Below are positions 5,827-63,300 of a stretch of DNA of 64,000 nucleotides, piece by piece (the first letter of the stretch is position 1; the number at the start of each line of letters is the position of its first letter). The DNA is from Polypterus senegalus (lineage: Eukaryota). The position numbers were made by a program, and so were the translations under genes. Where the stretch lies: contig NC_053155.1 of assembly GCF_016835505.1 (NCBI RefSeq), forward strand, positions 74,660,088 through 74,724,087, in the 5' to 3' direction. The notes beneath the pieces were generated by a model. That model saw only the letters and a list, made by a program, of their open reading frames with translations. It made no database searches and was not told where the DNA came from.

Positions 5827-7086
5827 TATGAAATATGGCTTCCTGCATTACTTACTACTGTAAAATATATATATATTTTTTAATAAAACACAAAACATTA
5901 CTTATGTATGTTTAATTTCGTATGCATCCAGAGGCTTGAATTTTTACACACTTGGTGAACAGATGCCACAGTGGCACCTGCACACTTAGCAAAACCCTTT
6001 AATCCCAGCTCTCCTACAGGAAAAGCTAGACCCTGACACACAACATGACACACTGCCCTGCAAAGCAGACCTGGCCAACCAGGCAAGACAGAAGCTATGG
6101 CAAACAGTAATAAAATAAGATATATATTTATTTAATGTTCACAATTTTAAAAGTCTATATCCAGAAAGGAGCAAATACAAAATCCAGTAGAACAAAATAT
6201 AACAGCAGAGATATCCAACTAGACTCGAGCCAAATAGCAAGTCCAAAAAGAGGAAAAGAACATAAGTTCAAAAATGTTGTGTCACCCAGCAATGGAAGGA
6301 CCAAAAGATAAACAGCAGTCAAAATAAGGAAGCTGAAACCGAGAGATAGAAAAGTACCTAGTATTCAGAGTTTAATTGTGATCCAAACTTGAAGTTGAAA
6401 GAATAACTAAGAGATTCAACTGCCAAGAACTTAAAAAAGGACACAAACTAACTTTGTTTCCTTTTCTTTTTGAACAATTCTTAAAAGTCAGACAAGGAAA
6501 TGACCTCAGGGTTCAATCTTTATACCCCGTGAACCCTGACATCACTTTCTTTGTTAACCTTGATGCTACCATTTGCAGCTGCATAGCAACTGCCAAACCA
6601 AACCACTCAAAATGGAATCTCCCAATGGAACCAAAATGAGTCGGGGGAGAACACAAAATAAATAATAAACATTAAAACAATGATGAAAAACAGCCTTCAA
6701 AATTGATTAAACAAACCCCCAAAACATAGAGGGAGAGAAAAATAACGTTGAAACCACTAGTAATCATGACAAAAACAAATAATCAAAATGCATAAAGTGA
6801 GCTTGGCTAAAGTCACTTACAGTGACAGAATCCAAAATACATGAGTAACCTGTTTCTCTCCTGCTCCCCCTTTTATTAATTTGCCCCTGCCATCATGTTG
6901 CTGCTGTTTGATTAATACTCAAGGCAACAAATACAGGTAGGTGCCAATGGCAGTGAAAGACAAAAGGAGTGACTACTGTGGAACCCTAGAGACCTTCTGA
7001 CAGGAATACTCAGAATAAAACTGAAAACCAGTTAAGTATAAGTCCCAAGGCCCACAGAAATCTTGGATTGGAATTATTAGGGAAGA

Positions 7087-7131
7087 TAGATAGATAGATA
7101 GATAGATAGAGAGAGAGATAGATAGATAGAT
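7087..7131. repeat. (GATA)n microsatellite
   Basis: gatagatagatagatagatagatagagagagagatagatagatagata. Confidence 0.95.
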
Positions 7132-7253
7132 ACTTTATTAATCCCAAGGGGAAATCCACATACTCCAGCAGCAGCATACTGATAAAGAACAATATTAAAT
7201 TAAAGAGTGATAAAAATCAAGGTATAACAGACAGACAATAATTTTGTATAATA

Positions 7254-24944: not shown

Positions 24945-27100
24945 TTGCCCTACAATTTATTTGCGTATAGCCCAAAATCACACAAGGAGTGCCACAATGG
25001 GCTTTTACAGGGCCTGTCTTTTGACAGGCACCCAGCCTTGACTCTCTTAAGAAGACTAAAAGAAAAAACTCAAAAAAACCCTTATAGGGGAAAAAAATAC
25101 AAGAAACCTTGGGAAAGGCAATTCAGAGAGAGTCAAAAAAGGGAGTAAATACAATACAATACACAGAACAGAACACAGTAATCCTCAATACAATACATTA
25201 GCACAATAGTAATATCACTAGTACAGAGCAAAATGAAGGAGTAGATGATATCAGATAATGCAATTCAGATTTGTTCAGAGTCCTGGAGGCCTCGGCCATC
25301 AAGCTGCCTCCCTGCCACTGGCCAATCCACAACTGAGTCAGTGGCGGGCCAGCCAGTCTGATGAAGGCCCCTTCTACCCTATGATTCCAGTGCATCTCTG
25401 TCAGAGATGACTTTTCCTTACGTAGGCAAACAACTTGGCAGTAGGGCAGTGGCAGCAAGTGCCACATTTGAGTTCCAAGAAGAGAAACAGAATGGGTGAA
25501 GTTTAGTAACAAATTATAACTATAATATTCCTTATGTTTTAGTGCTAATGACTAACAAAAGAGATGGGGTATGCACAGTTAATTAGCAGTTGTAGTCTGG
25601 GTATGCTAAATGGAATTGAGTGTTTAGCCAGGACTTGAAAGTATAGTAGCAGGCAGACCATCCCACAGTATAGGGACCCTGTAATTAAAAGCGTGACCTC
25701 CCACTGTTATTTTATTAATCTTTGGAGTCACAAGCAGACCAGCACCTTGAGATCTTAATGTGCGTTCTGGTTTGTAAGTAGTGATAAGTTCGAATAAGTA
25801 AGCTAGACCTTTGGGATTTAAAGTTTTATATGTTAAAAGTAGGATTTTGAAACCTGCCCTTAACTTAACTGGGAGCCAGTGTAAGGATTTAATGTGTTTG
25901 TATTTTCTTGTTCTTGTAATAATTATTTCAGCAGCATTTTAGATTATCTGGAAGCTGTATAAAGAACAATTTGAACATCTATTGAACACTGCATTACAGT
26001 AGCCAATCCTACTAGAAACAAATGTTTGACTTAAGTATCCTGCATATTTAGAAAATGCCTTAATTACCCAACATTTTTAAGATGGAAGAAACTTGTTTTG
26101 GACAGTTTTGTAATGTGCGCTTCAAATGACATAATAGAGTCAAAGATAACACCTAGATTGCAGACTGATTCAGTTAAAGAACGTCAAAATACTGTTGCGA
26201 TCAGCATCATTCCCTCCAATAATTAACAACTCCGTTTTATCTGTGTTTAAAGACATGTAGTTTTCATCCATCTACTCCTTTAATTCACTAACACAAATAA
26301 TTGAAGACAAAATCAGAGAAACTTAATTTGGCCTAAAAGAAAGGTATAAGTGGGTGTCATTTGCATATGAGTGAAGATTAACATTATGTTTTCTAATGAT
26401 TGATCTCAGTGGAAGCATGTAAAGTGAAATCAGTAAATGTACCTAGCCTTGCTGGATGCCATATCTCACTTCTGTGTATAACGATGGAATACTGTCAGCA
26501 CATTTCTGTACATACTAGAATCAATTTCATAAATAAAAACTAAACCAGGCAAGGACTTTGTCTGTGAGCCCAGTGTCATTTTCCAGTGTGTATGGTAAAA
26601 TAGAATTGTGAATAGTGTCAAATGCTGTGCTTAAGTCTAACAACATAATTACAATGGAGTTTCCTTCATCAGATGATATCAGAATGTCATTTATAACACG
26701 CATTTGTGCCATTTCTCTACTTTGACCAGTGCGGAAGCCACACTGGAATTTCTCAAATAAACTGAAGCAGATTAGTGACTATTTTTTCATGTATTTTATA
26801 GAGAAAGGACAAATTTAATATGGGTCTATACTTATACTATACATATTATAATTTGATGTTAATTGATCTAAATTGTTTTCCATGTTCCACATTTACATTT
26901 GATGTTAACTGATCTGAATGGTTTTCTACAATTACACTTGACTTACTCAAAGTATCTGTAAATCGTGAAGCAGAATTACAATCTAGATGTTGCACTCCCT
27001 TAGTGTTTTGGTAAGGGCAAAACCAAATAAAATATAATTAAGTAGTGATCAGAAATAACTTTATTTAATGGAGTAATATTTAAATTTTGAACTTCAACTT
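24945..27100 (-). mobile_element. LINE family B, 5'-truncated and degenerate copy, with the 3' end at 24945
   Basis: It is colinear at nucleotide level with 60370-62900. For example caatttatttgcgtatagcccaaaatcacacaaggagtgccacaatgggc matches cagtttatttttgtatagcccaaaatcacacaggaagtgccgcaatgggc. The RT remnant ORF 26527-26712 (-) has MLLDLSTAFDTI. Confidence 0.8.
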
Positions 27101-27552
27101 TAGTACTAGGGTGTTGTGCCGTGTTAGCCATAATGAATGTAGTGACAAGTTAAGCAAAATGACTGAGGAGTCAAAATGAGTGAGGAGGGCCCTGTCCTCC
27201 TCCCTGCAGCCCAATGAGTCTCTTTCAGATTCACGCTAATAAATTGGTACCGCAAGCGAACTATGATACTTACCACAATGAGAAAGTCGCAAAATCAACG
27301 GAATGTTCAAGCAAATTATAGGGAAAAACCCGATCTAAATGTGTTAAGTAGTTCTCTCCTGAAAAGCAGACAGACATACAAACAGCTCTAAAAAACTATA
27401 AGAAATTTTGCTCTTGGACCACAAAATTTTTAAAACCGTTTTTTAGCGAGCACCTATGGGCCAAGGTTAACCTACATTCCAAATTTCACGTCCCAAGTCC
27501 TCAAGGTTCAGGAGATTTCATGATGAGTGAATCAGTGGTATTTGGCTTTTAC

Positions 27553-29095
27553 AGTGCATCCAGAAAGTATTCACAGCGCATCACTTTTTCCACATTTTAT
27601 TATGTTACAGCTTTATTCCAAAATGGTTTAAATTCATTTGTTTCCTCAGAATTCTACACACAACACCCCGTAATGACGTGAAAAATGTTTACTTGAGATT
27701 TTTGCAAATTTATTAAAAATAAAGAAATTGAGAAAGCACATGTACATAAGTATTCACAGCCTTTGCCATGATTTGATGTTTCCCCTGATCATCCTTGAGA
27801 TGTTTCTGCAGCTTAATTGGAGTCCACCTGTGGTAAATTTAGTTGATTGGACATGATTTGGAAAGGCACACACCTGTCTATATAAGGTCCAGTTGACAGT
27901 TGATAGTTCATGTCAGAGCACAAACCAAGCATGAAGTCAAAGGAATTGTCTGTAGACCTCTGAGACAGGATTGTCTCGAGGCACAAATCTGGGGAAGGTT
28001 ACAGAAAAATTGCTGCTGCTTTGAAGGTCCCAATGAGCACAGTGGCCTCTATCATCTGTAAGTGGAAGAAGTTCGAAACCACCAGGACTCTTTCTAGAGC
28101 TGGCCGGCCATCTACACTGAGCGATCAGGGGAGAAGGGCCTTAGTCAGGGAGGTGACCAAGAACCCAATGGTCAACCCGAAGGACAACCATCTCTGCAGC
28201 AATCAACCAATCAGTTCTGTATGGTAGAGTGGACAGACTGAAGCCACTCCTTAGTAAAAGGCACATGACAGCCCATCTGGAGTTTGCCAAAAGGCACCTG
28301 AAGGACTCTCAAATCATGAGAAACAAAATTCTCTGGTCTGATGAGACAAAGATTGAACTCTTTGGTGTGAATGCCAGGCATCACGTTTGGATCACCAGGC
28401 CAATACCATCCCTACAGAGAAGCATGGTGGTGGCAGCATCATGCTGTGGGGATGTTTTTCAGCAGCAGGAACTGGGAGACTAGTAAAGATGACTGCAGCA
28501 ATGTACAGAGACATCCTGGATGAAAACCTGCTCCAGAGCGCTCTTGACCTCAGACTGGGGCGACGGTTCATCTTTCAGCAGGACAACGACCCTAAGCACA
28601 CAGCCAAGATATCAAAGGAGTGGCTTCAGGACAACTCTGTGAATGTCTTTGAGTGGCCCAGCCAGAGCCAAGACTTGAATCTGACTGAACATCTCTGGAG
28701 AGATCTTAAAATGGCTGTGCACCAATGCTTCCCCTCCAACCTGATGGAGCTTAAGAGGTGCTGCAAAGAGGAATGGGCGAAACTGGCCAAGGGTAGGTGT
28801 GCCAAGCTTGTGGCATCATATTCAAAAAGACTTGAGGCCGTAATTGCTGCCAAAGGTGCATCGACAAAGTATTGAGCAAAGGCTGTGAATACTTATGTAC
28901 ATGTGATTTCTCAGTTTTTTTATTTTTAATAAATTTGCAAAAACCTTAAGTAAACTTTTTTCACATTGTCATTATGGGGTGTTGTGTGTAGAATTCTGAG
29001 GAGAAAAATGAATTTAATCCATTTTGGAATAAGGCTGTAACATAACAAAATGTGGAAAAAGTGATGCGCTCTGAATGCTTTCCGGATGCACTGTA
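27553..29095 (+). mobile_element. Tc1/mariner transposon (family B), copy 1; the transposase is frameshifted and treated as a pseudogene
   Basis: The TIRs are CAGTGCATCCAGAAAGTATTCACAG... (27553-) and ...CTGTGAATGCTTTCCGGATGCACTGTATATG (-29095). The transposase is split across ORFs 28021-28227, 28229-28483 and 28387-28875 (HGGGSIMLWGCF...DNDPKHTAK...). Confidence 0.9.
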
Positions 29096-29400
29096 TATGT
29101 ATAGATTTACTTATTTGTTTTATTTCATATTGCTTACATCACCTACTATTCAACACAAAATGTATGCATATAAAAATTTCTTTCAAGGGCTAGTTTATTA
29201 AAAATGTTATGTTTATAGAATGACAGTAGCATTCACAGACTTTCAAGCAGCACTTTTCCTGGGCTGGGGCCTGCACTTCTATGTACATGTATTTTAAAGC
29301 TGTTTATTGCCTTGTGATATAGTGTCTCATACAGAAGACTTGTAGTAAAAGCTTTGTTTACTTCTAATATGTATAATGTTTTTGTTTTTATCTTTTTTAG

Positions 29401-29444
29401 GACACATTAGAGAAAGTTAAAGTTAGTGAATTTCAGAAGGAAGG
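29401..29444 (+). CDS. PARP4: PARP4 micro-exon; encodes DTLEKVKVSEFQKE(G)
   Basis: AG at 29399-29400 and consensus donor GTAAGT at 29445-29450, leaving phase 2. Aligns with human DTVEKICIKEIGTKQ. Confidence 0.8.
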
Positions 29445-30400
29445 GTAAGTATATTTATTATACACTGATTCCCTGAGACTCTGAAATAGGTAAGGAGGCT
29501 AGTTGGCAGATGGATAATACTTTTTCATGAGGCCTTGATTGATTATAAAAACAACTTGCTTGATTCTCATAGCATTTTTGACTTATCTAAAAAAAAATCT
29601 TTGTGTCTGAAGTTAGTCATCTGGTTTCATCTTCAAAATCCTCTTTATTCCTATTTGCCCGTTACACTGAAGTCTTTTTTCACTCAGTGTAACAATATAG
29701 TTTTTAGTAAATTGCACATTTTCTTGAAACAAGAATAAAAAAATGCAATCACAGTATTATATAAGCGAAATTATAGAGTACAGAATGGAAGACTTATGTA
29801 AGCTTTCCATTTTCTTGGGAGGCTTAAGCCAAGATCATTTGAGTGCCCTTTTCCCAAAAACATCTATTGTTCAGTTTGTGCATTGTTTTTCTTAAATTTG
29901 TTACATTTTAAGTAGCATGTTCTATTCTCAGTACCCTCCATTAGAAAGAGAAAATGAAACAAACCATTAGGTATGCATCTCCAGGTCCCAGTTACATGTA
30001 ATGGCTTCAGCTTGACCTCACTGACAAGTTGTACAACTGAAATGGCTGTAATGGATCCCTATATGTACAGTACTGTATGTTCAGTTCATAGGACCAATAG
30101 ATCGTCTCTAACATCCAGTGCCAAAAAATAAAAATGGGAAACGAGCTGGCCAGCTTTTTTATTTAATCTGTACAGCAGATATAGCAATTCTGTATTTTTG
30201 ATTACTGTTTAACAGTATTTGTTAAAAATATGTTATTACTTATGTCTAAAGTACAAAGTATATTATATATGCTAACAGTATATGCAGTATATACATAATA
30301 AATGTAATGTTTATATCCTATTAAATTCTGAAACCATCTGATGTTGTTAAATGTGTGTATTAAAAAAATAATATTGAATCATATTATTTTGTCTTTCAAG

Positions 30401-30482
30401 GGGGTTTATGTTGGATATGTCTGTTGAAATGCCATATGAAATCCAAGAGATCTGGTCTGAAACACACAATATTGATCTTAAG
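30401..30482 (+). CDS. PARP4: PARP4 exon; encodes (G)GFMLDMSVEMPYEIQEIWSETHNIDLK
   Basis: AG at 30399-30400 and GT at 30483-30484. Aligns with human SFSLTMSIEMPYVIEFIFSDTHELKQ. Confidence 0.85.
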
Positions 30483-30994
30483 GTATTGTATATAGTATCA
30501 ATTAACTTTACAGAACCTACTGCTTGACTGCATTTTTGTTTTTGTAGGCACTAAATGAATGGAACTAAACTTATTTACTCTTTATAAATTCTATGTACAT
30601 TCTAAGATTTTCTTTCTTGGAAAAAAATAAGTCTGAATTCTTCCTAATACTGAGATTTTTGGGTTAAAAATACAGTTTATTGCACAATTTTAGCACTTAG
30701 AAAGAATTTAGTAATAAAACAAAAATATAATAGTGTGCTGTCAATGTTTGATGATATGGATTAATTTTGAACCACTTTATTTTCGGTACACTTTTATTTA
30801 CCGTAGCACATTTGAAATTTGCATCATACTACTGCCTGTAATTTTGTCAATTTTAAATACAGAATGTCAAACACTCACACATATAAACATGTTCACATTA
30901 AGATTCCACCCTTTTAAAAATTTTCTTTCTGTCTAGTTGCTTTGCTGAAAGAGGAAATTATATCAGAACCAAATGTTTGTTCTTTACTTTTCAG

Positions 30995-31132
30995 AAAACA
31001 GAGTGTAAAGCTGTCATTAGAACCAAGGAGGGCAGTTCTTTAGGATCTGATGGTTTCAGCCTCAGTGTTCGCTTGTCTGAATTATACCTGCCTAGGATGT
31101 GGGTGGAGAAGCACCCAGACAAAGAGAGTCAG
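30995..31132 (+). CDS. PARP4: PARP4 exon; encodes KTECKAVIRTKEGSSLGSDGFSLSVRLSELYLPRMWVEKHPDKESQ
   Basis: AG at 30993-30994 and GT at 31133-31134. Aligns with human KRTDCKAVISTMEGSSLDSSGFSLHIGLSAAYLPRMWVEKHPEKESE. Confidence 0.9.
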
Positions 31133-31602
31133 GTAAAGCTAAAGAAAGGTCAGGAATGTATTTTGGTAATGCTTCACTTAACACATGCTGTGACAGTAGC
31201 AGAAAAAGACAAACGAAAATATGTTTTTTTTTTTATATTTATACTACAAGAATAGGATATTCAATGCTGTTCACTTAACTTTTGCAAAAAATCCAGTCAA
31301 GATAATCGTCAAAGTACTACTGTTTACAATACTGCTTTTTAACTGTTTGCATATGTTATTGGTACTCTGTGTGAAGAAAACCTACTAACCTTTAACCAGC
31401 TCCCTGATTTGTTCATAACAATGTCATATACCTCAATTTATTTTTTCATATTTTAAATACTTATTTCATTTTGTCTCTTTGTAAATATTCCTAGTTTTAG
31501 TTTTTATATATTGTATATACTCCAAAACATGGCGAAACATATTATCCCCATGATTAAATTACTTCTACCCATTGATTATAATAGAATATATTTTGAAATA
31601 CT

Positions 31603-33024
31603 ACAGTGCATCTGGAAAGTATTCACAGTACATCACTTTTTCCACATTTTGTTATGTTACAACTTTATTCCAAAATGGATTAAATTCATTTTTTTCCTCA
31701 GAATTCTACAAATAACACCCCATAATGACAACATTAAAAAAGTTTACTTGAGGTTTTTGCAAGTTTATTAAAAATAAAAAAACTGAGAAATCACATGTAC
31801 TGTACATAAGTATTCACAGCCTTTGCTCAATACTTTGTCGATGCACCTTTGGCCGCAATTACGGCCTCAAGTCTTTTTGAATATGATGCCAGAAACTTGG
31901 CACACCTATCCTTGGCCAGTTTCGCCCATTCCTCTTTGCAGCACCTCTTAAGCTCCATCAGGTTGGAGGGGAAGCATTGGTGCACAGCCATTTTAAGATC
32001 TCTCCAGAGATGTTCAGTCAGATTCAAGTCTTGGCTCTGGCTGGGCCACTCAAAGACATTCACAGAGTTGTCCTGAAGCCACTCCTTTGATATCTTGGCT
32101 GTGTGCTTAGGGTCGTTGTCCTGCTGAAAGATGAACCGTCGCCCCAGTCTGAGGTCAAGAGCGCTCTGGAGCAGGTTTTCATCCAGGATGTCTCTGTACA
32201 TTGCTGCAGTCATCTTTCTCTTTATCCTGACTAGTCTCCCAGTTCCTGCTGCTGAAAAACATCCCCACAGCATGATGCTGCCACTACCATGCTTCACTGT
32301 AGGGATGGTATTGGCCTGGTGATGAGCGGTGCCTGGTTTCCTCCAAACGTGACGCCTGGCATTCACACCAAAGAGTTCAATCTTTGTCTCTTCAGACCAG
32401 AGAATTTTGTTTCTCATGGTCTGAGAGTCCTTCAGGTGCCTTTTGGCAAACTCCAGGCAGGCTGCCATGTGCCATTTACTAAGGAGTGGCTTCCGTCTGG
32501 CCACTCTACCATACAGGCCTGATTGGTGGATTGCTGCAGAGATGATTGTCCTTCTGGAAGGTTCTGCTTTCTCCACAGAGGACCTCTGGAGCTCTGACAG
32601 AGTGACCATCGGTTTCTTGGTCACCTCCCTGACTAAGGTCCTTCTCCCCTGATCGCCAGCTCTAGGAAGAGTCCTGATGGTTTCGAACTTCTTCCACTTA
32701 CGGATGATGGAGGCCACTGTGCTCATTGGGACCTTCAAAGCAGCAGAAATATTTCTGTAACCTTCCCCACAAACCTTTGACTTCATGCTTGGTTTGTGCT
32801 CTGACATGAACTGTCAACTGTGGGACCTTATATAGACAGGTGTGTGCCTGTGAATACTTATGTACATGTGATTTCTCAGTTTTTTATATTTTTAATAAAT
32901 TTGGAAAAACCTCAAGCAAACTTTTTTCACTTTGTCATTATGGGGTGTTGTGTGTAGAATTCTGAGTAAAAAAATGAATTTAAAAACTGATGCGCTGTGA
33001 ATACTTTCCGGATGCACTGTATAT
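31603..33024 (-). mobile_element. Tc1/mariner transposon (family B), copy 2, in inverted orientation relative to copy 1
   Basis: The TIRs are CAGTGCATCTGGAAAGTATTCACAG (31604-) and ...GTGAATACTTTCCGGATGCACTGTATATG (-33024). It is more than 90% identical to copy 1 across the TIRs and transposase. Confidence 0.9.
31827..32807 (-). CDS. Tc1-family DD34E transposase ORF of 326 aa, open but with in-frame deletions relative to copy 1
   Basis: The uninterrupted ORF reads MSEHKPSMKSKVCGEGYRNISAALKVPMSTVASIIRKWKKFETIRTLPRAGDQGRRTLVREV...HGSGSIMLWGCF...[12 protein letters not shown]...EWPSQSQDLNLTEHLW.... It lacks the ELSVDLRDRIVSRHKS-like segment and RPSTLS that are present in copy 1. Confidence 0.85.
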   Translation of the reverse strand: MSEHKPSMKSKVCGEGYRNISAALKVPMSTVASIIRKWKKFETIRTLPRAGDQGRRTLVREVTKKPMVTLSELQRSSVEKAEPSRRTIISAAIHQSGLYGRVARRKPLLSKWHMAACLEFAKRHLKDSQTMRNKILWSEETKIELFGVNARRHVWRKPGTAHHQANTIPTVKHGSGSIMLWGCFSAAGTGRLVRIKRKMTAAMYRDILDENLLQSALDLRLGRRFIFQQDNDPKHTAKISKEWLQDNSVNVFEWPSQSQDLNLTEHLWRDLKMAVHQCFPSNLMELKRCCKEEWAKLAKDRCAKFLASYSKRLEAVIAAKGASTKY

Positions 33025-34039
33025 GTGCTAAAGAGACAAATTTCTATTCTGTGGTTAAAAACTATAGTTAACTGCTTAAGTTAAATGTTAAGTTGTTCAG
33101 ACAGTCTTCAGTGAGCTGATATTAAACTGTGACCTTTTAACTGCAAAGATGTTCCATTCATAGAGCAAAAGCAATGGGACTCTGTTTTATATTTTGATTT
33201 ATAATATATATACTAATAAAAGGCAAAGCCCTCACTGACTGACTCACTGACTCATCACTAATTCTCAGAGTTCCCGTGTGGGTAGAAGGCTGAAATTTGG
33301 CAGGCTCATTCCTTACAGCTTACTTACAAAAGTTGGGCAGGTTTCATTTCGAAATTCTATGCGTAATGGTCATAACTGGAAGCTATTTTTCTCCATTTAC
33401 TGTAATGGAGTTGAGCTGGATGGCCGTGGGGGGCTGAGTTTCGTGTGACATCATCACGCCTCCCACGTAATCACGTGAACTGACTATCAACGCAGTACGT
33501 AGAAAACCAGGAAGTGCTCCAAAAAGCGCTAAAGAAAACATGCATTATATAATTGAGAAGGCAGCGAAACAATAAGAAGCGAGCGACTGACATTTACAAC
33601 CATATTCATGAGTGCTGCTACTTCGGAAACAAAGCACGGTGTAAACCTAAAGTTTAAATTAAGTTCATAGACACGCTGCCGCTGGCGTTTGTCATGCCCA
33701 CAGCTAATGCGGGATACAAGTTTAATGAGAGGACGCAGGATATAAACGAGTTTTGATCACTTTGTAATTAAGTTAAAATTGCAGGTTAAAGGCTGTATTT
33801 ATGCAAATTCCGAGAGACTGTGTTTGTGGGGGATTGACAGTTAAGGTGGGTGGGGGAGTCACATCATCATCTCCCCTCCCATTCACCTCATTTGGTGAAG
33901 GACTGTGCTTATGCAGACGAAGATGAGATGGTCAGGGTGGTGTTTGGCAGAAACTGTGCACAGACAAAATGTCAACTCGATCTGAATTGCGCGATCACAT
34001 TCGAAAGCATACATCTTTTCAACTTCTATTTAATCAACA

Positions 34040-34830
34040 CTTAGCATATTCATATGTAAGGCTGCTGCGCAACTCAGCACACCTCCCATGTAATTGACTG
34101 CCTGCCCATATAAGGCCGTTCTTCGCTGTGGCGTGTTCATTCATTTCCTTGCTTTGCCAAAGAAGCAGCCTTTTCATAGGTTCTCCATTGTTTTAGCATA
34201 TGCATAGGTGCAGCTGCTGTGGAAATCAGCACGCCTCCCATATAATTGACTACCTGCCCATATAAGGCCATTCTTCGCTGCGGTGTCTTCATTCGTTTCG
34301 TTGCTTGAACAAGGAAGCAGCGTTCTCACAGCTTCTGCGCTGTTTTATAAACAAACGACATATATTTTTCCTTGCTTCGCCAACGAGGCAACCTTTTTAT
34401 TTAATCCACGGGTTCTGCGCTGTTTTATTGTTCATTTGTTACGATTGTTATACTTATTGTGTACGTATTTTACACTTAGTTTACTGTTCAAGTACCCATT
34501 TCCTTTATTTAATCCGCGGCTTTTCTGCTATTGTTTTGTTCGTTTATTACGTTTATGCTTATTTCATTCACTTTCTTTGCCTGACTGCCTGCCCATAGTA
34601 GGCGCTTAGCAGTTTTTTTGTGAAGCAGCTTTCTCACAGCTTCTGCACTGTTTTATAAATGAACGACATATAAGAAAGTCCTTTTCCTTGCTTCGCCAAC
34701 GAGGCAACCTTTTTATTTAATCCACGGGCTCTGCGCTGTTTTATTGTTCATCTGTTATGATTGTTATAGTTATTGTGTAGATATTTTATACTTTTTTTAC
34801 TGATCAAGTACCCATTCCCTTTATTCTTCC
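34040..34830. repeat. Tandem repeat of about 2.7 units of roughly 270 bp (...cctcccatataattgactacctgcccatataaggcc...ccttgcttcgccaacgaggcaacctttttatttaatccacggg(t/c)tctgcgctgttttattgttcat...)
   Basis: Direct repetition is visible at 34040-34150, 34205-34520 and 34560-34830, with about 90% identity between the second and third units. Confidence 0.85.
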
Positions 34831-34848
34831 AACTGTATCCCTATTAAA

Positions 34849-35622
34849 ATGTCTATTGACGTAATCACCATCAATCAAAGAACTATCACTTACCGAGTGT
34901 TGTCCATGCCCAGAGATGGCGCCTGCCTTTTCCATTCTCTGTGTTACATATTGCATGGCCATATCAGGTTCACTCTTGATATCCAGAGGAACATTGTCTC
35001 TTATGTATTGAATGACTGGGACAGGTTCAAGGTGTGGACTGATGATGGTACAGGAGATAATTATACTGCACAGGAGCACTAGAAGAGTGAAATGCTTAAG
35101 CCCTTCACCTATGGTTCTGCATGTGAGTTGATGGCTGCCGCTGAATTGTTCGGTTGTCGCTTTCAAGTGTACCGAAATGGCCAAATATTTTACACCTTTC
35201 GACAACTGCCAGTGCCTCTTAAACATCTTAGACTCACAGGTGACGATTTCAGTAGTGGACACTTTGATGTTTTTGAATGTTTAAACTCTCAAAAGCTGGA
35301 TGTGAAGTTATCGATGAAACCGGTTGTATGCTTACAACGCTTAACAGATGCCGAATGTCACTTCAACACAAGTCCTACAAATACTGTCGTAATTGAAACA
35401 AACCATGAAACTCAAACGATTATGACAGCAGCAATCCAAGCTGTGAGATTTGAAACAAGATTACTGTTCACATGGCCTACTGTACGTTGCATGCTCAAGA
35501 GTAAGCTCAGCGTACAGCTTGGTCATATTACAACTTGGAGGGCCAAACTCAAAATGTGGTATACAAAGAGATCCTTAACAAATAATTATTGGTATATTTT
35601 CCCTCAGTTTAAAAAGGTTTAA
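34849..35622 (+). CDS. OTU-like cysteine protease ORF (Cys box ...PRDGACLFHSL..., His box ...SSGHFDVF...), interrupted by one in-frame TAG at 35083-35085
   Basis: ORF 34849-35082 and ORF 35092-35622 are in the same frame and separated only by a TAG. The combined translation has OTU hallmarks: DGxCLF(H)SL, then ...YGSACELMAAAELFGCRFQVY (the W/GG..E..A.S...I.V region), then GHFD. Confidence 0.6.
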
Positions 35623-38600
35623 TTTTCTTCTTAATAAAAATTTTAAGGCAGTACTTGCCTGAAGCTGGTATTTTGCTAGTTTTTAATAAGTGTTATTTTG
35701 CATTAAACTTATGTAATTGGTCTGCATGTCTTGGCTGATTGATGTAATAAAGTAATACAAGGCACCTAGTGTGGGCAGATTGCTATTTCTTTCCCGCAGT
35801 ATTAGTGACTAAGACAGGAGTGCCTCCAGTAGTGAGAAACATGGGAAGAAATAGTATGCCATTGATAAATGTCAATAAATAAGATGCATAAGCATCAAGT
35901 GACTAGGGGACACCCATATGCTCAACCCAAAGCTAGCGAGTCCTTATCTAGAGTACTGAGGAGTAACAGGCTATGCAGGGATCACTTATAATCAGTGCTC
36001 AAATGTGTGTATGTTTGGATTGTGTGTGTATGTTCATTTTAAACCACACGAGAGTAGTCCAACCCGTAACAAATATAGTGAGCCTTGCTCACCCTATGAT
36101 ACTACACTAGGTTAAAAAATACAATAAATGATTTCATCACTGAACTCAAGCTCCTGAGCTCCACTATGTGTATCCCTGTTTATTAATTAACTTTACCCTC
36201 TAAATTAGCTTTTTTGTTAATGTTTAAAGCTATATATTGACATCATTATTCACTTGGGAGTATATATCAAGCACCTAGTGTAATATTACTATCCTTTCAT
36301 CTTTCTTGTGGAACTCAGATGTCCTTACTTGAGTCATGGCTCATATCCTATTTGACACAAAATCTTATCTGAAAATGTAATTGACAGACAGCCACATTTT
36401 CTGATTTTTCCTAACTTTTCTAAATAACATGTCCCATGTAATATTATTTTTATTTCTTTATCATTAACATTTCCAAAAACATCTTACTGTCTTCAGAATT
36501 CAGGCAAATTTAACAAATGTGTTAAAGTTAACCGTCTGGAAAACAAACAGCAGTATCAAGTTATGTAACCATTGCTGGTTATTAATATGAATATATCAGG
36601 AGTTCTTAAACATTTTAATTTGATTACCGAAATAAGAAAATCAGTACTATACTGGGACCCAGAAAGAGGACTATTACCATAACGACAGTAAAGCTATACA
36701 TAGAAAAATAACAATGGCCATACAATAAACACAGTAAAGGTTTTTGCTTCCCTTCAAGCTAATTTCTCACATAAGTATTACTAAAAGAAAAAAGTGAAAA
36801 CCAAGCATATTGTTGTTAAATCAATAATTAATATTCAAAACTAACAATGAATTTCAGAGATATATCTTAGCCAGTGTAAATATTTAGTGTGAGCTTTAGT
36901 TAGGCAGAAAGAAAAAAATTCTTCTTTATACCAGGGGCAGCACTAGGTTAAGATGGTTTTCTTAAAGCAAAGTACGAAACTTAACTTAATCTCTCAATGC
37001 ACCAATTAAGCAATAAAATAGTCCAAAAATAATTCATTTATGCCATTTAGTTACCTTGTCTTTGGTAATTTTTTTATATTATTTTTCAGATGAGTTCCAC
37101 CTTTAACAATATCTCTGAATGAGTTGAATTCCACCAAAGTCCACTCTGCAGCCTGTCTTTCCCTTTTGATATTTTCTACTGCTCATGCAGTTCTCAATGG
37201 TCCAACAAACACATCCTTTACACTATCAGTAGATTGACATTAATTGAACCACTTTTAAAAAGTGTTAAGAGAAGAAATTTGTCCTTTGTTAAGCATGTTA
37301 TACTTAACGCAAAATCTTCATTACATGTGTGTTACAGATTTGGATACAATGGATACCACAAGATAATTTTTTCAACCCACACAATAGCTCAGTTTGGTGA
37401 AAAAAAACATCTGGCAACTCTTGGCCAGAGTCCCTTCCCTTCCCTGATTCTTTGGAATGACTAGAAAGAGATCTCTCAATTAAAATTTTTAAATGTCCTC
37501 TCATAGAATTTATTCTAGTTTAGTATGGGCCAAGCACACCACAATTCAACTAAAAATGATTAATATATCACATACATCTTGTTTATGTGTAAAATGTACG
37601 CAGGGAAAGATTTAACCTGGAAGTGTTGTCATCGAGAGTCTACATTGCTAGGCTGTATTTTTTACGAATGCCCTAAATCTAAATCATTTTGGGCAGAGAG
37701 TTTTGCAAATTTCTTGGGTTATCTTGGACATTCACTCCTAATGCATTGATGGCAATATACTATGAAAAATCAGCTGTAATATCCTATCAGCTGGTAGTAT
37801 TTCAATCTGCCTTCTGTAACTCAGTGGAAAAGCTATGTATTATTTTATCTTAAATTCGAAAAAATCTCTTTACGGGGATTTGTTCTGAGCCTTTTCAAAA
37901 CATAACATGAACTCATAAATATAATATTTATAATCCTAAACTATGCATGTTGTGTCTGTGCTCACGTTTTGAGCTCTGTTTGCTTTTTTATCATATATTA
38001 AGCACTGTTGATGGAAAGAAGTAGATTACTGTTCGTAATGGATGAATGCTGAATGTTAGGATATGACATACACAAGCTCACATATTCAGTATATGTGCTA
38101 ATAGCATGGCAACAACATGCATATTTGTAAAATATGAAACTTACAAATGGTGCTGGTAATAACACTACTGTTAGAATCCTTCAAACCCTTAAAAATAAAT
38201 CAAGGACAAAATATCAAAATCAATTAACACCTGACATGTACCACATAAGATCAAACATGATGTTGTTAATATAATGGTCAATTTTGGTCCAGTGAACACA
38301 ACTGACCAAACAAACTTTAAAGCAAAGCTGAAACAATGAAATAATTAATTTCTAAATGTAACCTTCAGAATTCTGGTAGGTGGAATCTTCTCAGTTTGTT
38401 GAGTAGAAAAGCCAACATACAGTATTATTGCAATCCCAATAGTCTATTTTGGTCATTTTAACACCTGACATGAAGTACAAAATACAAAGCATTAACTATG
38501 AGCTCCACAAGCTACAGGTATGGATACTGTTTTGGAGAAAATAAATCATATATACCTTCTTATTTTTTAACTGTATGCATAGACCTTTCTTATGTATATA

Positions 38601-38641
38601 TTTATCAGTTTACTTCAAGATTCCGTACTTCTTTTTTTCAG

Positions 38642-38825
38642 GCTTGCATGTTAGTATTTTGCCCAGCGTTTGACTCCAACAGCTTGCCTGAAGGTAGTGA
38701 AGTTGTGATCCTCTTGGACAATTCCAATTCCATGAAAGGGTCAAAGCTGCAGGAGGCCAAACAAATTGCAGTCCTGGCCTTGGAGGCACTTGAATGCAAG
38801 ACTAATGTTATCATGTTTGGAACAG
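38642..38825 (+). CDS. PARP4: PARP4 exon, start of VWA domain with MIDAS-like DxSxS motif; encodes ACMLVFCPAFDSNSLPEGSEVVILLDNSNSMKGSKLQEAKQIAVLALEALECKTNVIMFGT(G)
   Basis: AG at 38640-38641 and GT at 38826-38827, leaving phase 1. Aligns with human ACMLVFQPDLDVDLPDLASESEVIICLDCSSSMEGVTFLQAKQIALHALSLVGEKQKVNIIQFGTG. Confidence 0.9.
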
Positions 38826-49964: not shown

Positions 49965-52410
49965 TACTGTATTATGTATATTATAGTCATGGGGGACTTT
50001 AATTATCCAAATATTAACTGGGATAACCTTACAGATGGAGGAGCACAAGAGCAGGAGTTTTTAGAAGTAATCAGCGACTGTTTTTTAACACAGCATGTTA
50101 AAGCACCAACAAGGGGTGAAGCCTATCTGGATTTAGTATTCTGTAATAATCAGGATAGAATTGAGGGTGTAGAGGTGATTGAACCACTAGGGTCAAGTGA
50201 CCATAATGTAATACAATTCTCAGTATTTTGTAAGAGTACAGATGCAAAGACTAAAATTGTTAAGTTGAACTTTAGTAGGGCTAATTTTGAGCAGATGCGA
50301 CAAAGTCTAAGTAGGATAGACTGGGATAAGCTTTTAAATGTGGAGACAGTCGAGGAGCAGTGGAACAGGTTTAAAAATGTTTTACATGTAATGCAGGACA
50401 GATACATACCTAAATTTGGAAGTAATAGGAAACTAAAAAATCTCCACGATGGATTAATAAAGATTTAAAAAAGAAGTTGCAAAGGAAAAAACTGCTGTAT
50501 AAGGCATATAAGACTAATGACTGCAAAGAGAACCGTAGAGCGTATGAGAAAATGAGGGCAACCATTAAGAAGGATATCAGAGAGGCTAAAAGACAGTTGG
50601 AGAGGAATATAGCAGATAAGGCGAAAGAAGACCCCAAGAGATTCTTTCAGTATTTTAGTAGTAAAAGAACAGTTAAGGAGGAGGTCAAGTTCATCAGGAA
50701 TAGTAAAGGGGAATTAAAAGATACAGACAATGAAATAGCAGATGCCCTAAACTTACATTTTTCTGAGGTGTTTACAAGTGAGCAAGTGGATAACCTGCCA
50801 GAGGTAAACACAACTACTAAGGAGGTACTGAGGGATTTGGAAATTGTAGAGGGAGAAGTGCTGCTCGGATTAAATAAGATAAAATCAAACAAATCACCAG
50901 GCCCAGATAATATTTATCCTCGTGTTTTTAAGGAGGCTAGTGAGTACATATATAAACCCTTGACACATATTTTTAGGAAGTCACTGTGCACTGAGAGATT
51001 CCAAAGGACTGGAAAATGGCAAATATCATCCCATTATATAAAAAGGGTGACAGGGCAGATCCAAGCAACTATAGGCCAGTAAGCTTAACAAGCATCACAG
51101 GAAAATTAATGGAAGGAATTATTAAGGATAAGATTGAGCAACACATGACAAGGACAGGAGTTATTCTGAACAGTCAGCATGGGTTCAGAAGGGGGAGGTC
51201 GTGTTTTACTAACATGCTGGAATTCTATGAGGAGGCAACAAAGGATACGATCAAAGTGGAGCTTATGATATTATTTATCTGGACTTTCAGAAAGCATTTG
51301 ATAAGGTGCCACATGAGAGGTTGGGCATCAAGTTAAAAGAAGTGGGAATTCAGGGTGATGTTTTTAGATGGGTGCAGAATTGGCTCAGACACAGGAAGCA
51401 GAGGGTGATGGTGCGAGGAACCTCATCAGAACTGGCCGATGTTAAGAGTGGTGTTCCACAGGGGTCAGTGCTAGGGCCGCTGCTATTTTTAATATATATA
51501 AATGATTTAGATAGGAATATAAGTAACAAGCTGGTTAAGTTTGCAGATGATACCAAGATAGGTGGATTAGCAGATAATTTGGAATCCGTTATATCATTAC
51601 AGAAGGACTTGGATAGCATACAGGCTTGGGCAGATTTGTGGCAGATGAAATTTAATGTCAGTAAATGTAAAGTATTACACATAGGAAGTAAAAATATTAG
51701 GTTTGAATACACAATGGGCGGTCGAAAAATCGAGAGTACACCTTATGAGAAGGATTTAGGAGTCATAGTGGACTCCAAGCTATCAACTTCCAAACACTAT
51801 TCAGAAGCCATTAAGAAGGCTAACAGAATGTTAGGTTATATAGCACGATCTGTGGAGTACAAGTCCAAGGAGGTTATGCTCAACCTTTATAATGCACTGG
51901 TGAGGCCTCATCTTGAGTACTGTGTGCAGTTTTGGCTACAAAAGGACATAGCAGCACTAGAAAAGGTCCAGAGAAGAGCGACTAGGCTGATTCCAGGTCT
52001 ACAGGGGTTGAATTATGAGGAAAGATTAAAAGAGCTGAGCCTTTACAGTTTAAGCAAAAGAAGATTAAGAGGTGACATGATTGAAGTGTTTAAAATTATG
52101 AAGGGAATTAGTACAGTGGATCGAGACTTGTATTTTAAAATGAGCTCATCAAGAACACGGGGACACAGTTGGAAAATTGTTAAGGGTAAATTTCGCACAA
52201 ACATTAGGAAGTTTTTCTTTACACAAATAACAATAAACACTTGGAATAAGTTACCAAGTAGTGTGGTAGACAGTAAGACGTTAGGGACTTTCAAAACTCG
52301 ACTTGATGTTTTCTTGGAGGAAGCAAGTGGATAGGACTGGCGAGCTTTGTTGGGCTGAATGGCCTGTTCTCGTCTAGATTGTTCTAATTCTAATTCTAAT
52401 TCTAATAAAG
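49965..52410 (+). mobile_element. CR1/L2-clade LINE, 5'-truncated, with an ORF2 of APE-endonuclease C-terminus plus RT, frameshifted in three places, and a 3' (TTCTAA)n tail
   Basis: ORF 49974-50468 has GDFNYPNINW...SDHN (APE). ORF 51306-52334 has ...LLFLIYINDL...KFADDTKIGG...RTRGHSWKIVKGKFRTNIRKFFFTQ..INTWNKLP (the CR1/L2 RT C-terminus). The microsatellite lies at 52379-52407. Confidence 0.88.
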
Positions 52411-54177: not shown

Positions 54178-55218
<1,041 letters not shown>

Positions 55219-60369: not shown

Positions 60370-63300
60370 TACAATACAATACAGTTTATTTTTGTATAGC
60401 CCAAAATCACACAGGAAGTGCCGCAATGGGCTTTAACAGGCCCTGCCTCTTGACAGCCCCCCAGCCTTGACTCTCTGAGAAGACAAGGAAAAACTCCCAA
60501 AAAACCTTGTAGGGAAAATGGAAGAAACCTGGGAAAGGCAGTTCAAAAGAGACCCCTTTCCAGGTAGGTTGGGCGTGCAGTGGGTGTCAAAAGTAGGGGG
60601 TCAATACAATACACAGAACAGAACAATTCCTTAATACAGCATAATAATAAAAATTTTAGAAGTATACAGTTTAACAGTAGATGATATGACATAATTAGGT
60701 TTGGATATTTTTAGAGTCCTGGAGACCTCATCCATCTAGCTGCCTCCCATTTGGCCATGCCACGGCTGAAACGTTGCTCGATGAAAGGACCCTCTTTCCC
60801 ATGATTCCTGTGATCCTCCATCAGGGATGACTTTACCATAGGCAGGCAAACAACTTGGCAGGTGGGCGTGGCACCAATGCCACATTTGGGTACCGAGAAA
60901 GAAACAGAATAGGTGAGGGTTAGTATTCAAATATAATTATCATGTTACTTATGTTTAGTGCTAATGACTAACAACAGAGATGCAGTATGTACAGTTAATC
61001 AGCAGCTCTAGTCAGGATATGCTAAACTGAAGTAGTGAGTCTTCAGCCGGGATTTAAAGGCTGAGACTGAAGGGGCATCTCTTATGGAAGCAGGAAGACC
61101 ATTCCACAGTTTAGGGGCCCTGTAACTAAAAGCTCGACCTCCCACTGTTATTTTATTAATCCTTGGAATCCTAAGCAGACCGGCATCTTGAGATCTTAAT
61201 GTGCTCAGGTTTGTAAGTCATGATAAGTTCAGACAAGTAAGCGGACCTTGGCCATTTAATGCTTTATATGTTAAAAGGAGGATTTTGAAATCTGCCCTAA
61301 ACTTAACTGGGAGCCAGTGTAAAGATTTAAGAACTGGGGTTATGTGTTCATATTTTCTTGTTCTTGTAATAATTCTTGCAGCGCATTTTGGATTAACTGG
61401 AGGCTGTATAGAGAACAGTTTGAACAGCCAGTGAACACCGCATTGCAGTAGTCAATCCTACTAGAGATAAATGCATGAATTAATTTCTCACAATCCTGTT
61501 TATTTAGAAAGCGCCTTAATTTCCTAACATTTTTAAGATGGAAAAACATGTTTTGGACGACTTTGTAATATGCTTTAAATGACATGCTAGAGTCAAAGAT
61601 AACTCCTAGATTGCGGGCTGATTCAGTAAAATTAATTGGGATTCCAACTGAGTTAAATGACGACAAAATATTGCTGTGATCAGCGTCATTCCCTCCAACA
61701 ATTAACATCTCTGTTTTATCTGTATTTAAAGACAAGTAGTTCTCATTCATCCATTCCTTTAATTCACTAACACAACTAATTAAAGACAACATCGGAGAAA
61801 CTTCATTTGATTTAAATGAAAGGTATAACTGGGTGTCATCTGCATACGAGTGAAAATTAACATTATGTTTCCTAATGAGAGATCCCAGTGGAAGCATGTA
61901 AAGTGAAAACAGTAAAGGTCCCAGTACTGAGCCCTGCGGACACCATATTGAACTTCTGTGTATAATGATGGAGTACTGTCTGCACATTTCTGTACATATG
62001 GAATCGATTTGATAAATAAGAACTGAACCAAGCGAGCACGGGCCTGTAAGCCCAACATCGTTTTCTAGCCTGTGCAGTAAAATAGAATGGTCAATGGTGT
62101 CAAATGCTGCACTTAAGTCCAACAACATAATTACAGTGGAATTTCCTTCATCAGAGGATATCAGAATGTCATTTACAACCCGTGTTAGTGCGTTTCTGTA
62201 CTATGACCAGTGCGAAAGCCAGACTGGAATTTCTCAAATAAATTGTAATGCGTAAGGTGTGACTGAAGCTGACTGGCGACTACTTTTCTAGTATTTTAGA
62301 GAGAAATGGTAAATTTGAAATAGGCCTATAGTTATTTAGTATGTGTGGGTCTAGGTCTGACTTTTTAAGTAAAGGTTTAATGACTGACACTTTTAGTGCA
62401 TCAGGTACTGTGCCATGCAGTAATGAACTATTGATAATGTTAGAATAGGGCTGCAAGAACATCCATTGCACTTTTACTAGTTTTGTTGGCACTGGATCTA
62501 GGGAACAAGTAGTGGGCTTCATTTTAGTAATTAAAGTTAAGACTTCCTGGTGAGTTACAGGATTAAAATTATTAAAGTGCTGAATGCAATGTGCAGGGTC
62601 TGCTAAGCTAGTATTTGGTTTGTACTGTGATGCTGAGATCTGGGACCTTATATTTTTAATTTTCTCATTGAAGAAGTTCATAAAGTCTGTACTGCTAATA
62701 TCTGTTGGTATTTTGCACTGTTGATCTGAATTCCCATTTGTTAATTTAGCCACTGCTCTAAAAGTACCCTAGGATTTTTATTATTGCTATCTATTAATGT
62801 AGAATAGTATTCTGAGCGAGCTTTAAAGAGGGCTTTTTATATTTATTAACACTCTCTGTCCATGCAATTTGAAAGACATGTAGCTTTGTTGTTCTCCATC
62901 TGCGCTCCAGTTTTCGACACTCTAATTTAAGAGCTCGAGTATTTTCATTAAACCAGGGAGAGTTTCTATGTGCTTTGATCACTTTTGTTTTAGGGGAGCC
63001 ACTGTGTCCAGAGCATCTCTCAAGGTCACATTATAATGTGATATTAGCTGATCTAAATTGTTTTCCACGTTTACATTTGATGTTAACTGATCTAAATGGT
63101 TTTCCACAATTACACTCGACTTACTCAAGGTATCTATAAATTTTGAAGCAGAATTACAATCTAGATGTCGCACTGTCTTTGTTTTAATCTGTGAGTGCTG
63201 GCATGGGCAGAACTAAATCAAATGTAATTAAGAAGTGATCGGAAATAACTACATTTAATGGAGTAATATTTAAATTTTGAATTTCAACTTTGTAAGTTAT

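Follow-up and report, generated by a model that had tools for sequence, protein, structure and literature searches.

Sleeping Beauty-type elements, which are Tc1 transposons of the DD34E type found in fishes and frogs and built on an inverted repeat/direct repeat (IR/DR) plan, are the closest described relatives of the two elements reported here. Their arrangement in turn recalls two other systems: reverse-complementary matches (RCMs) such as inverted Alu pairs, and the arms of genomic palindromes or nearby repeats that convert one another. The locus lies in a stretch of 64,000 nucleotides (nt) from Polypterus senegalus (contig NC_053155.1, positions 74,660,088 to 74,724,087), which was analyzed as a whole and is called the window below. 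Two copies of one Tc1 family stand there in opposite orientation in introns of the PARP4 gene, with three PARP4 exons between them. Our favored explanation, which we hold with good though not full confidence, is that these are two separately inserted, dead copies of an abundant polypterid Tc1, most likely passive relics without a selected role. They also share a tract that carries the signature of gene conversion.

The two copies resemble Sleeping Beauty-type elements in the TA duplication, the CAGTG termini, and the IRs of ~215 nt with two direct repeat (DR) cores. They also resemble them in a transposase of ~339 amino acids (aa) with paired-like helix-turn-helix (HTH) and DDE_3 parts and 34 residues between the second D and the E. 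They differ in that the family is polypterid-specific and both copies in the window are defective. As with inverted Alu pairs, inverted repeats occupy both introns of an exon block, the splice sites are canonical, and strong pairing is predicted. Unlike these, the arms are DNA transposons of ~1.4-1.5 kb rather than the usual tens to 300 nt, each arm has internal IRs able to compete, and the pair is known from DNA sequence alone. The likeness to arm-to-arm conversion in palindromes lies in a sharply bounded tract of identity within otherwise diverged inverted arms, which puts the private mutations of one arm into both. The dimensions are modest, however (arms of 1.5 kb, a spacer of 2.5 kb, a single tract of ~0.3 kb), and sustained homogenisation along the whole arm is not seen. 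Finally, circular RNAs (circRNAs) from PARP4 are reported in the literature on human. The human cases cannot depend on a fish-specific Tc1 pair.

The inverted Tc1 pair and its shared tract

The copies were located by a repeat search of positions 26000-34500, followed by alignment with BLAST and MAFFT (Table 1). An earlier note on this stretch had placed them at 27553-29095 (+) and 31603-33024 (-), which is right within 3 nt. It had also described them as one Tc1 family in opposite orientation about 2.5 kb apart, and this was borne out, with a spacer of 2506 nt. Copy 2 was reverse-complemented and aligned globally with copy 1. The two agree at 1271 of 1336 aligned bases (95.1%), and the 65 mismatches comprise 39 transitions and 26 transversions. 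The copies further differ by 11 indels totaling 294 nt; compared with copy 1, copy 2 has deletions of 40, 106, 42, and 18 nt. The earlier note had put the identity above 90% and had named a value below about 80% on alignment as evidence against its reading. Over the aligned columns, the identity is well above both figures; it is 78% when all gap columns are counted.

In both copies, homology ended exactly at TA-CAGTG...CACTG-TA. Since the flanks beyond these ends could not be aligned, and since indels and substitutions were private to one or the other copy (for substitutions, outside the tract described below), the alignment shows that copy 1 and copy 2 are separate TA insertions of one Tc1 family. 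When either copy was compared by BLAST with the whole window, no further family member was found (n = 2).

The alignment contained a mismatch-free run of 363 aligned nt (28430-28792), which spans a 12-nt indel and continues for 308 nt to the right of it. Elsewhere in the alignment, the mismatch was ~6.7%. When 65 mismatches were placed at random 20000 times, the longest mismatch-free run obtained was 261 nt, compared with the 363 nt observed. Derived states were called codon by codon by comparing both copies with the family consensus, a protein-level sequence of 339 aa built from the 120 best relatives. Inside the tract, both copies shared seven derived residues (L>F, P>Q, P>L, I>T, R>Q, R>C, and E>K), and at most one residue, in the boundary codon, was private or different. 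Outside the tract, one derived residue was shared and 22 were private or different (Fisher's exact test for shared versus private and inside versus outside, p = 2e-5; p = 4e-6 without the boundary codon). Per codon, derived residues are as frequent in the tract (7 in 103 codons) as they are in one copy outside it (~10 in 172). Three of the shared changes (CGA>CAA, CGC>TGC, and GAG>AAG) were confirmed at the DNA level against internally deleted relatives from metagenomes. A subfamily signature was also considered for the tract and rejected: among the 120 closest proteins, none had more than 3 of the 8 non-consensus states that copy 2 has there, 7 of which are shared with copy 1.

A tract that has the normal derived density of one copy and is present in both is what an overwriting of one copy by the other would produce. 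We therefore regard the tract as the signature of non-allelic (arm-to-arm) gene conversion between the inverted copies, in which the decayed sequence of one copy would have replaced 308-363 nt of the other. Gene conversion implies that the copies physically recombined, or at least interacted, at the DNA level. The earlier note had proposed such recombination in the form of inversion between the copies. The conversion tract lends indirect support to the interaction, and thereby bears out part of that proposal, but the present haplotype is not inverted, as the enclosed exons are collinear with the rest of PARP4 in the assembly (one haplotype). A literature search on ectopic conversion between transposons returned nothing specific. 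Compared with the earlier note, the tract is the new element, a small but solid addition. It also offers a natural example of a dated-looking conversion between transposon relics that lie in introns.

Table 1. Positions in the window of the two Tc1 copies, their parts, and the PARP4 exons around and between them
Feature	Positions	Strand	Details
Tc1 copy 1	27550-29095	+	1546 nt, flanking TA included
Tc1 copy 2	31602-33021	-	1420 nt, flanking TA included
Candidate gene-conversion tract, copy 1 side	28485-28792	+	308 nt, 100% identical to copy 2
Candidate gene-conversion tract, copy 2 side	31910-32217	-	counterpart of 28485-28792
Left long inverted repeat, copy 1	27550-27766	+	IR/DR type; DR cores AAGTATTCACAGC at 27565 and 27748
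Right long inverted repeat, copy 1	28876-29095	-	~92% complementary to left IR
Transposase reading frame of copy 2	31827-32807	-	326 aa; HTH_SB, HTH_Tnp_Tc3_2, DDE_3
PARP4 exon upstream of the block	23801-23965	+	end of VIT domain; human 712-766; ends ...NEKTQ, followed by gtaatg
Enclosed PARP4 exon 1 of 3	29401-29444	+	44 nt
Enclosed PARP4 exon 2 of 3	30401-30482	+	82 nt
Enclosed PARP4 exon 3 of 3	30995-31132	+	138 nt
PARP4 exon downstream of the block	38642-38825	+	start of vWA domain, DNSNSM motif; human 855-919

The enclosed PARP4 exons and predicted RNA pairing

That three PARP4 exons lie between the copies, as the earlier note had it, was confirmed. Each exon is flanked by canonical ag and gt borders, and the joined exons form an open frame of 88 codons (264 nt), the translation of which aligns end to end with residues 767-854 of human PARP4 (E=1.4e-27). 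Together with the two neighboring exons, the five-exon translation is collinear with human residues 712-919 (E=7.5e-68). Because the neighboring exons continue the human numbering directly on either side of the block, exactly three exons are enclosed, and the idea of another exon hidden between either copy and its flanking exon was rejected. No PARP4 match was found in positions 31133-37500. Copy 1 lies in an intron of 5435 nt and ends 305 nt ahead of the first acceptor of the block, and copy 2 lies in an intron of 7509 nt and begins 469 nt past the last donor. The expectation that loss of the block by skipping would leave the frame intact also held, since both block boundaries are in phase 0; the block-skipped product would join ...NEKTQ-ACMLVF... 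in frame.

Between ~5.2 and 45.2 kb, the + strand carries more PARP4-like exons in collinear order, and the gene therefore looks intact in the window. Single-exon Pfam matches to VIT and VWA scored under the gathering threshold. The 88-aa exon block had no match in a large protein database. A 204-aa PARP4 fragment matched only distant PARP4 pieces in a protein database, with at most 57-58% identity, and no polypterid PARP4 isoforms were found there.

Within positions 23966-38641, which comprise both flanking introns, the copy pair provided the only inverted matches. The predicted duplex energy was -866 kcal/mol for the near-perfect arms of 417 nt and -1713 kcal/mol for the 3' 920 nt, and own-IR pairing inside each copy was predicted at -318 and -215 kcal/mol. 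In the minimum free energy (MFE) fold of a 5.7-kb RNA (27450-33120), 1289 base pairs connect copy 1 with copy 2 and only 59 and 21 lie within the copies. As the MFE fold pairs the two copies with each other, the three exons are predicted to be looped out by an inter-copy duplex at equilibrium. The three exons spliced into a circle (29401-31132) would amount to 264 nt; frame 0 of this circle has four ATGs and lacks a stop codon, so that its open reading frame (ORF) would be endless. An Rfam scan of the whole window gave no match.

When RCMs lie in flanking introns, they promote both the back-splicing and the skipping of the exons between them (PMC8330042), and ADARs act on such matches (PMC8938519). 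At this locus, reverse-complementary sequence is present in both flanking introns, and the enclosed exons have canonical splice sites; what an ADAR substrate requires, a long near-perfect duplex, is present as an in silico prediction only. In the pre-mRNA, the sense copy could pair with the antisense copy along ~1.3 kb, and the three exons would then be looped out. Through the known RCM mechanism, this duplex should favor some back-splicing, giving the 264-nt circle, as well as in-frame skipping of the block, and it should be a target of ADARs. Such back-splicing, skipping, and editing would be by-products and not functions. A literature search on fish circRNAs with DNA-transposon arms returned nothing specific. 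The locus offers a natural, fully mapped case in an early-branching ray-finned fish in which a pair of DNA transposons, not short interspersed elements, forms a very long RCM around an in-frame exon block. If back-splicing or skipping does take place here, the repeat-driven circRNA mechanism would extend to Tc1 elements in a non-teleost fish.

Probable passive relics and competing explanations

At present, the locus is best seen as a by-product to be expected in a genome so full of a single Tc1 family, and as an ordinary instance of known phenomena. Inverted pairs of this kind are expected by chance because the genome carries thousands of family copies, and the sequence analyses of the window found no sign of a selected function. 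Some points weigh against our reading of the tract and of the RNA. The polarity of the derived states was set by protein-level family data and a short DNA outgroup only. As the RNA is transcribed, the hairpins made by the IRs of a single copy arise first, and they could compete with inter-copy pairing. Double-stranded RNA, editing, back-splicing, and skipping, like an inversion polymorphism between the copies, are generic possibilities here. Moreover, an error of assembly or polishing, in which reads of one copy corrected the other, might in principle account for the identical tract instead of a biological conversion. The tract is indeed perfectly identical and lies in a high-copy repeat, a setting in which such errors occur. 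We nevertheless consider this explanation unlikely, since the seven non-consensus residues in the tract exclude a mis-correction by reads of the thousands of other copies. The error would have required cross-talk between exactly these two copies, and the length of ~0.3 kb and the sharp edges fit typical conversion tracts.

Alternatively, the pair might be regarded as a selected regulatory device that drives a functional 264-nt PARP4 circRNA, or an isoform without the 88 residues between VIT and vWA, with conversion helping to keep the arms complementary. In favor of this, no other reverse-complementary match flanks the block, the arms of the pair are near the splice sites (305 and 469 nt), and a very large duplex is predicted. 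In addition, the block keeps the frame, a circle made from it would be open without end in frame 0 and contain four ATGs, and the recent conversion tract restores perfect pairing over ~300 bp. On the other hand, chance pairs are expected from thousands of family copies, the arms decay freely outside the tract (~6.7% mismatch, 294 nt of indels), and the RNA outcomes are known as potential only. The 88 residues are also well conserved with human (E=1.4e-27), which suggests that they are needed in the protein. Taken together, we find a selected device improbable. That the pair has been kept in polypterid PARP4 as a working RNA-pairing device, yielding the endless-ORF circle and/or a linker-less isoform while arm conversion periodically restores complementarity, seems very improbable to us. 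Another explanation concerns the origin of the pair, which might stem from one inverted segmental duplication or from the local hop of an already decayed copy. The copies are close together and are the only two in 64 kb, and local hopping is known from Tc1-type elements. A segmental duplication is rejected because homology stops exactly at the TA-flanked termini, and 22 of the 23 derived residues outside the tract are private, which argues against a shared decayed ancestor. We give this origin hardly any credence. Finally, the arrangement might act as a composite transposon whose two outer left IRs would together move the enclosed PARP4 exons. Engineered Sleeping Beauty sandwich vectors have a geometry resembling this inverted pair, and the two ends that face outward are both left IRs in which an outer DR core can still be recognised. 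The chance of this is close to negligible, as the left IR of copy 2 has lost 40 and 106 nt, a second copy of these exons is not in evidence, and both elements are old and decayed. Two separately inserted and now passive relics remain the explanation we favor.

The transposon family and other repeats in the window

The IRs are ~215 nt long in each copy and 90-93% complementary within a copy. The core AAGTATTCACAGC occurs 7 times, always inside the IRs and in outer and inner positions, whereas 0.14 occurrences are expected by chance. Outer and inner cores within long IRs are the IR/DR arrangement that characterizes Sleeping Beauty-like Tc1 elements. The IR sequence itself had no match in a literature search. 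In the reading frame of copy 2, the matches to HTH_SB (3.9e-14), HTH_Tnp_Tc3_2 (1.1e-15), and DDE_3 (5.8e-11) all exceed the Pfam cut-offs. There are 34 residues between D230 and E265 (DD34E) and 90 between the first and the second D. The TA duplication, terminal inverted repeats, HTH, and DDE parts all being present, both copies are assigned to the Tc1 family (DD34E) of the Tc1/mariner superfamily, IR/DR subgroup.

The catalytic motifs of the family consensus are WSDETK, DNDPKH, and PIEHLW. In copy 2, the first catalytic D is replaced by E (D139E, WSEETK instead of WSDETK), in-frame deletions have removed ~22 aa of the DNA-binding part relative to the 339-aa consensus, and the 40-nt and 106-nt deletions fall in the left IR. 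In copy 1, the transposase frame is disrupted by deletions and frameshifts, and the largest remaining ORF has 162 aa (28387-28875). Judged by the intactness of the full-length transposase, the DDE triad, and the IRs, neither copy is autonomous as far as its sequence tells.

At E<=1e-30, 3336 relatives were found in a protein search. Of these, the 120 best were nearly all from Polypterus senegalus, with a few from Erpetoichthys calabaricus, and had 80-89% identity. From this search, the family is very abundant in polypterid fishes. A metagenome scan found family relatives in internally deleted forms only. Short relatives of this kind, resembling miniature inverted-repeat transposable elements, were present in the ENA metagenome contigs ERZ506946 (1041-2040), ERZ506189 (660-1208), and ERZ506812 (2157-2383), with IRs 80-95% identical to those of the window copies. 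Their presence means that fish DNA carrying the family was contained in those samples.

Other Tc1-like sequences in the window belong elsewhere. A second transposase remnant at 54214-55143 (-) has only 40% protein identity to the family of the pair (E=3e-62) and represents a different Tc1 family within this gene region. A distant Tc1/mariner-like fragment with 23-31% aa identity was found at 14682-15150 (-), in the GC-richest part of the window (14-16 kb, GC 0.49). In the intron downstream of copy 2, positions 34041-34347 hold a tandem duplication of a 152-nt unit, the two copies of which are ~81% alike. An OTU-like cysteine-protease reading frame at ~34800-35620 (+) is split between two frames; its match to human OTUD3 is weak (E=0.26), and it probably belongs to another intronic mobile element. 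The PARP4 introns also contain microsatellites, (TA)43 at 16983-17068 and (AGAT)12 at 7084-7132. Another dispersed repeat, noticed during a search for vWA motifs, has two copies on the + strand (~26300-26450 and ~61780-61930) with near-identical translations (…LTLCFLM.D.SGSM…). Finally, the + strand is purine-rich at 50001-52000 (GC skew +0.28, AT skew +0.18), and a long frame on this strand resembles the N-terminal region of the reverse transcriptase of long interspersed elements (…SPGPDNIYPRVFKE…).

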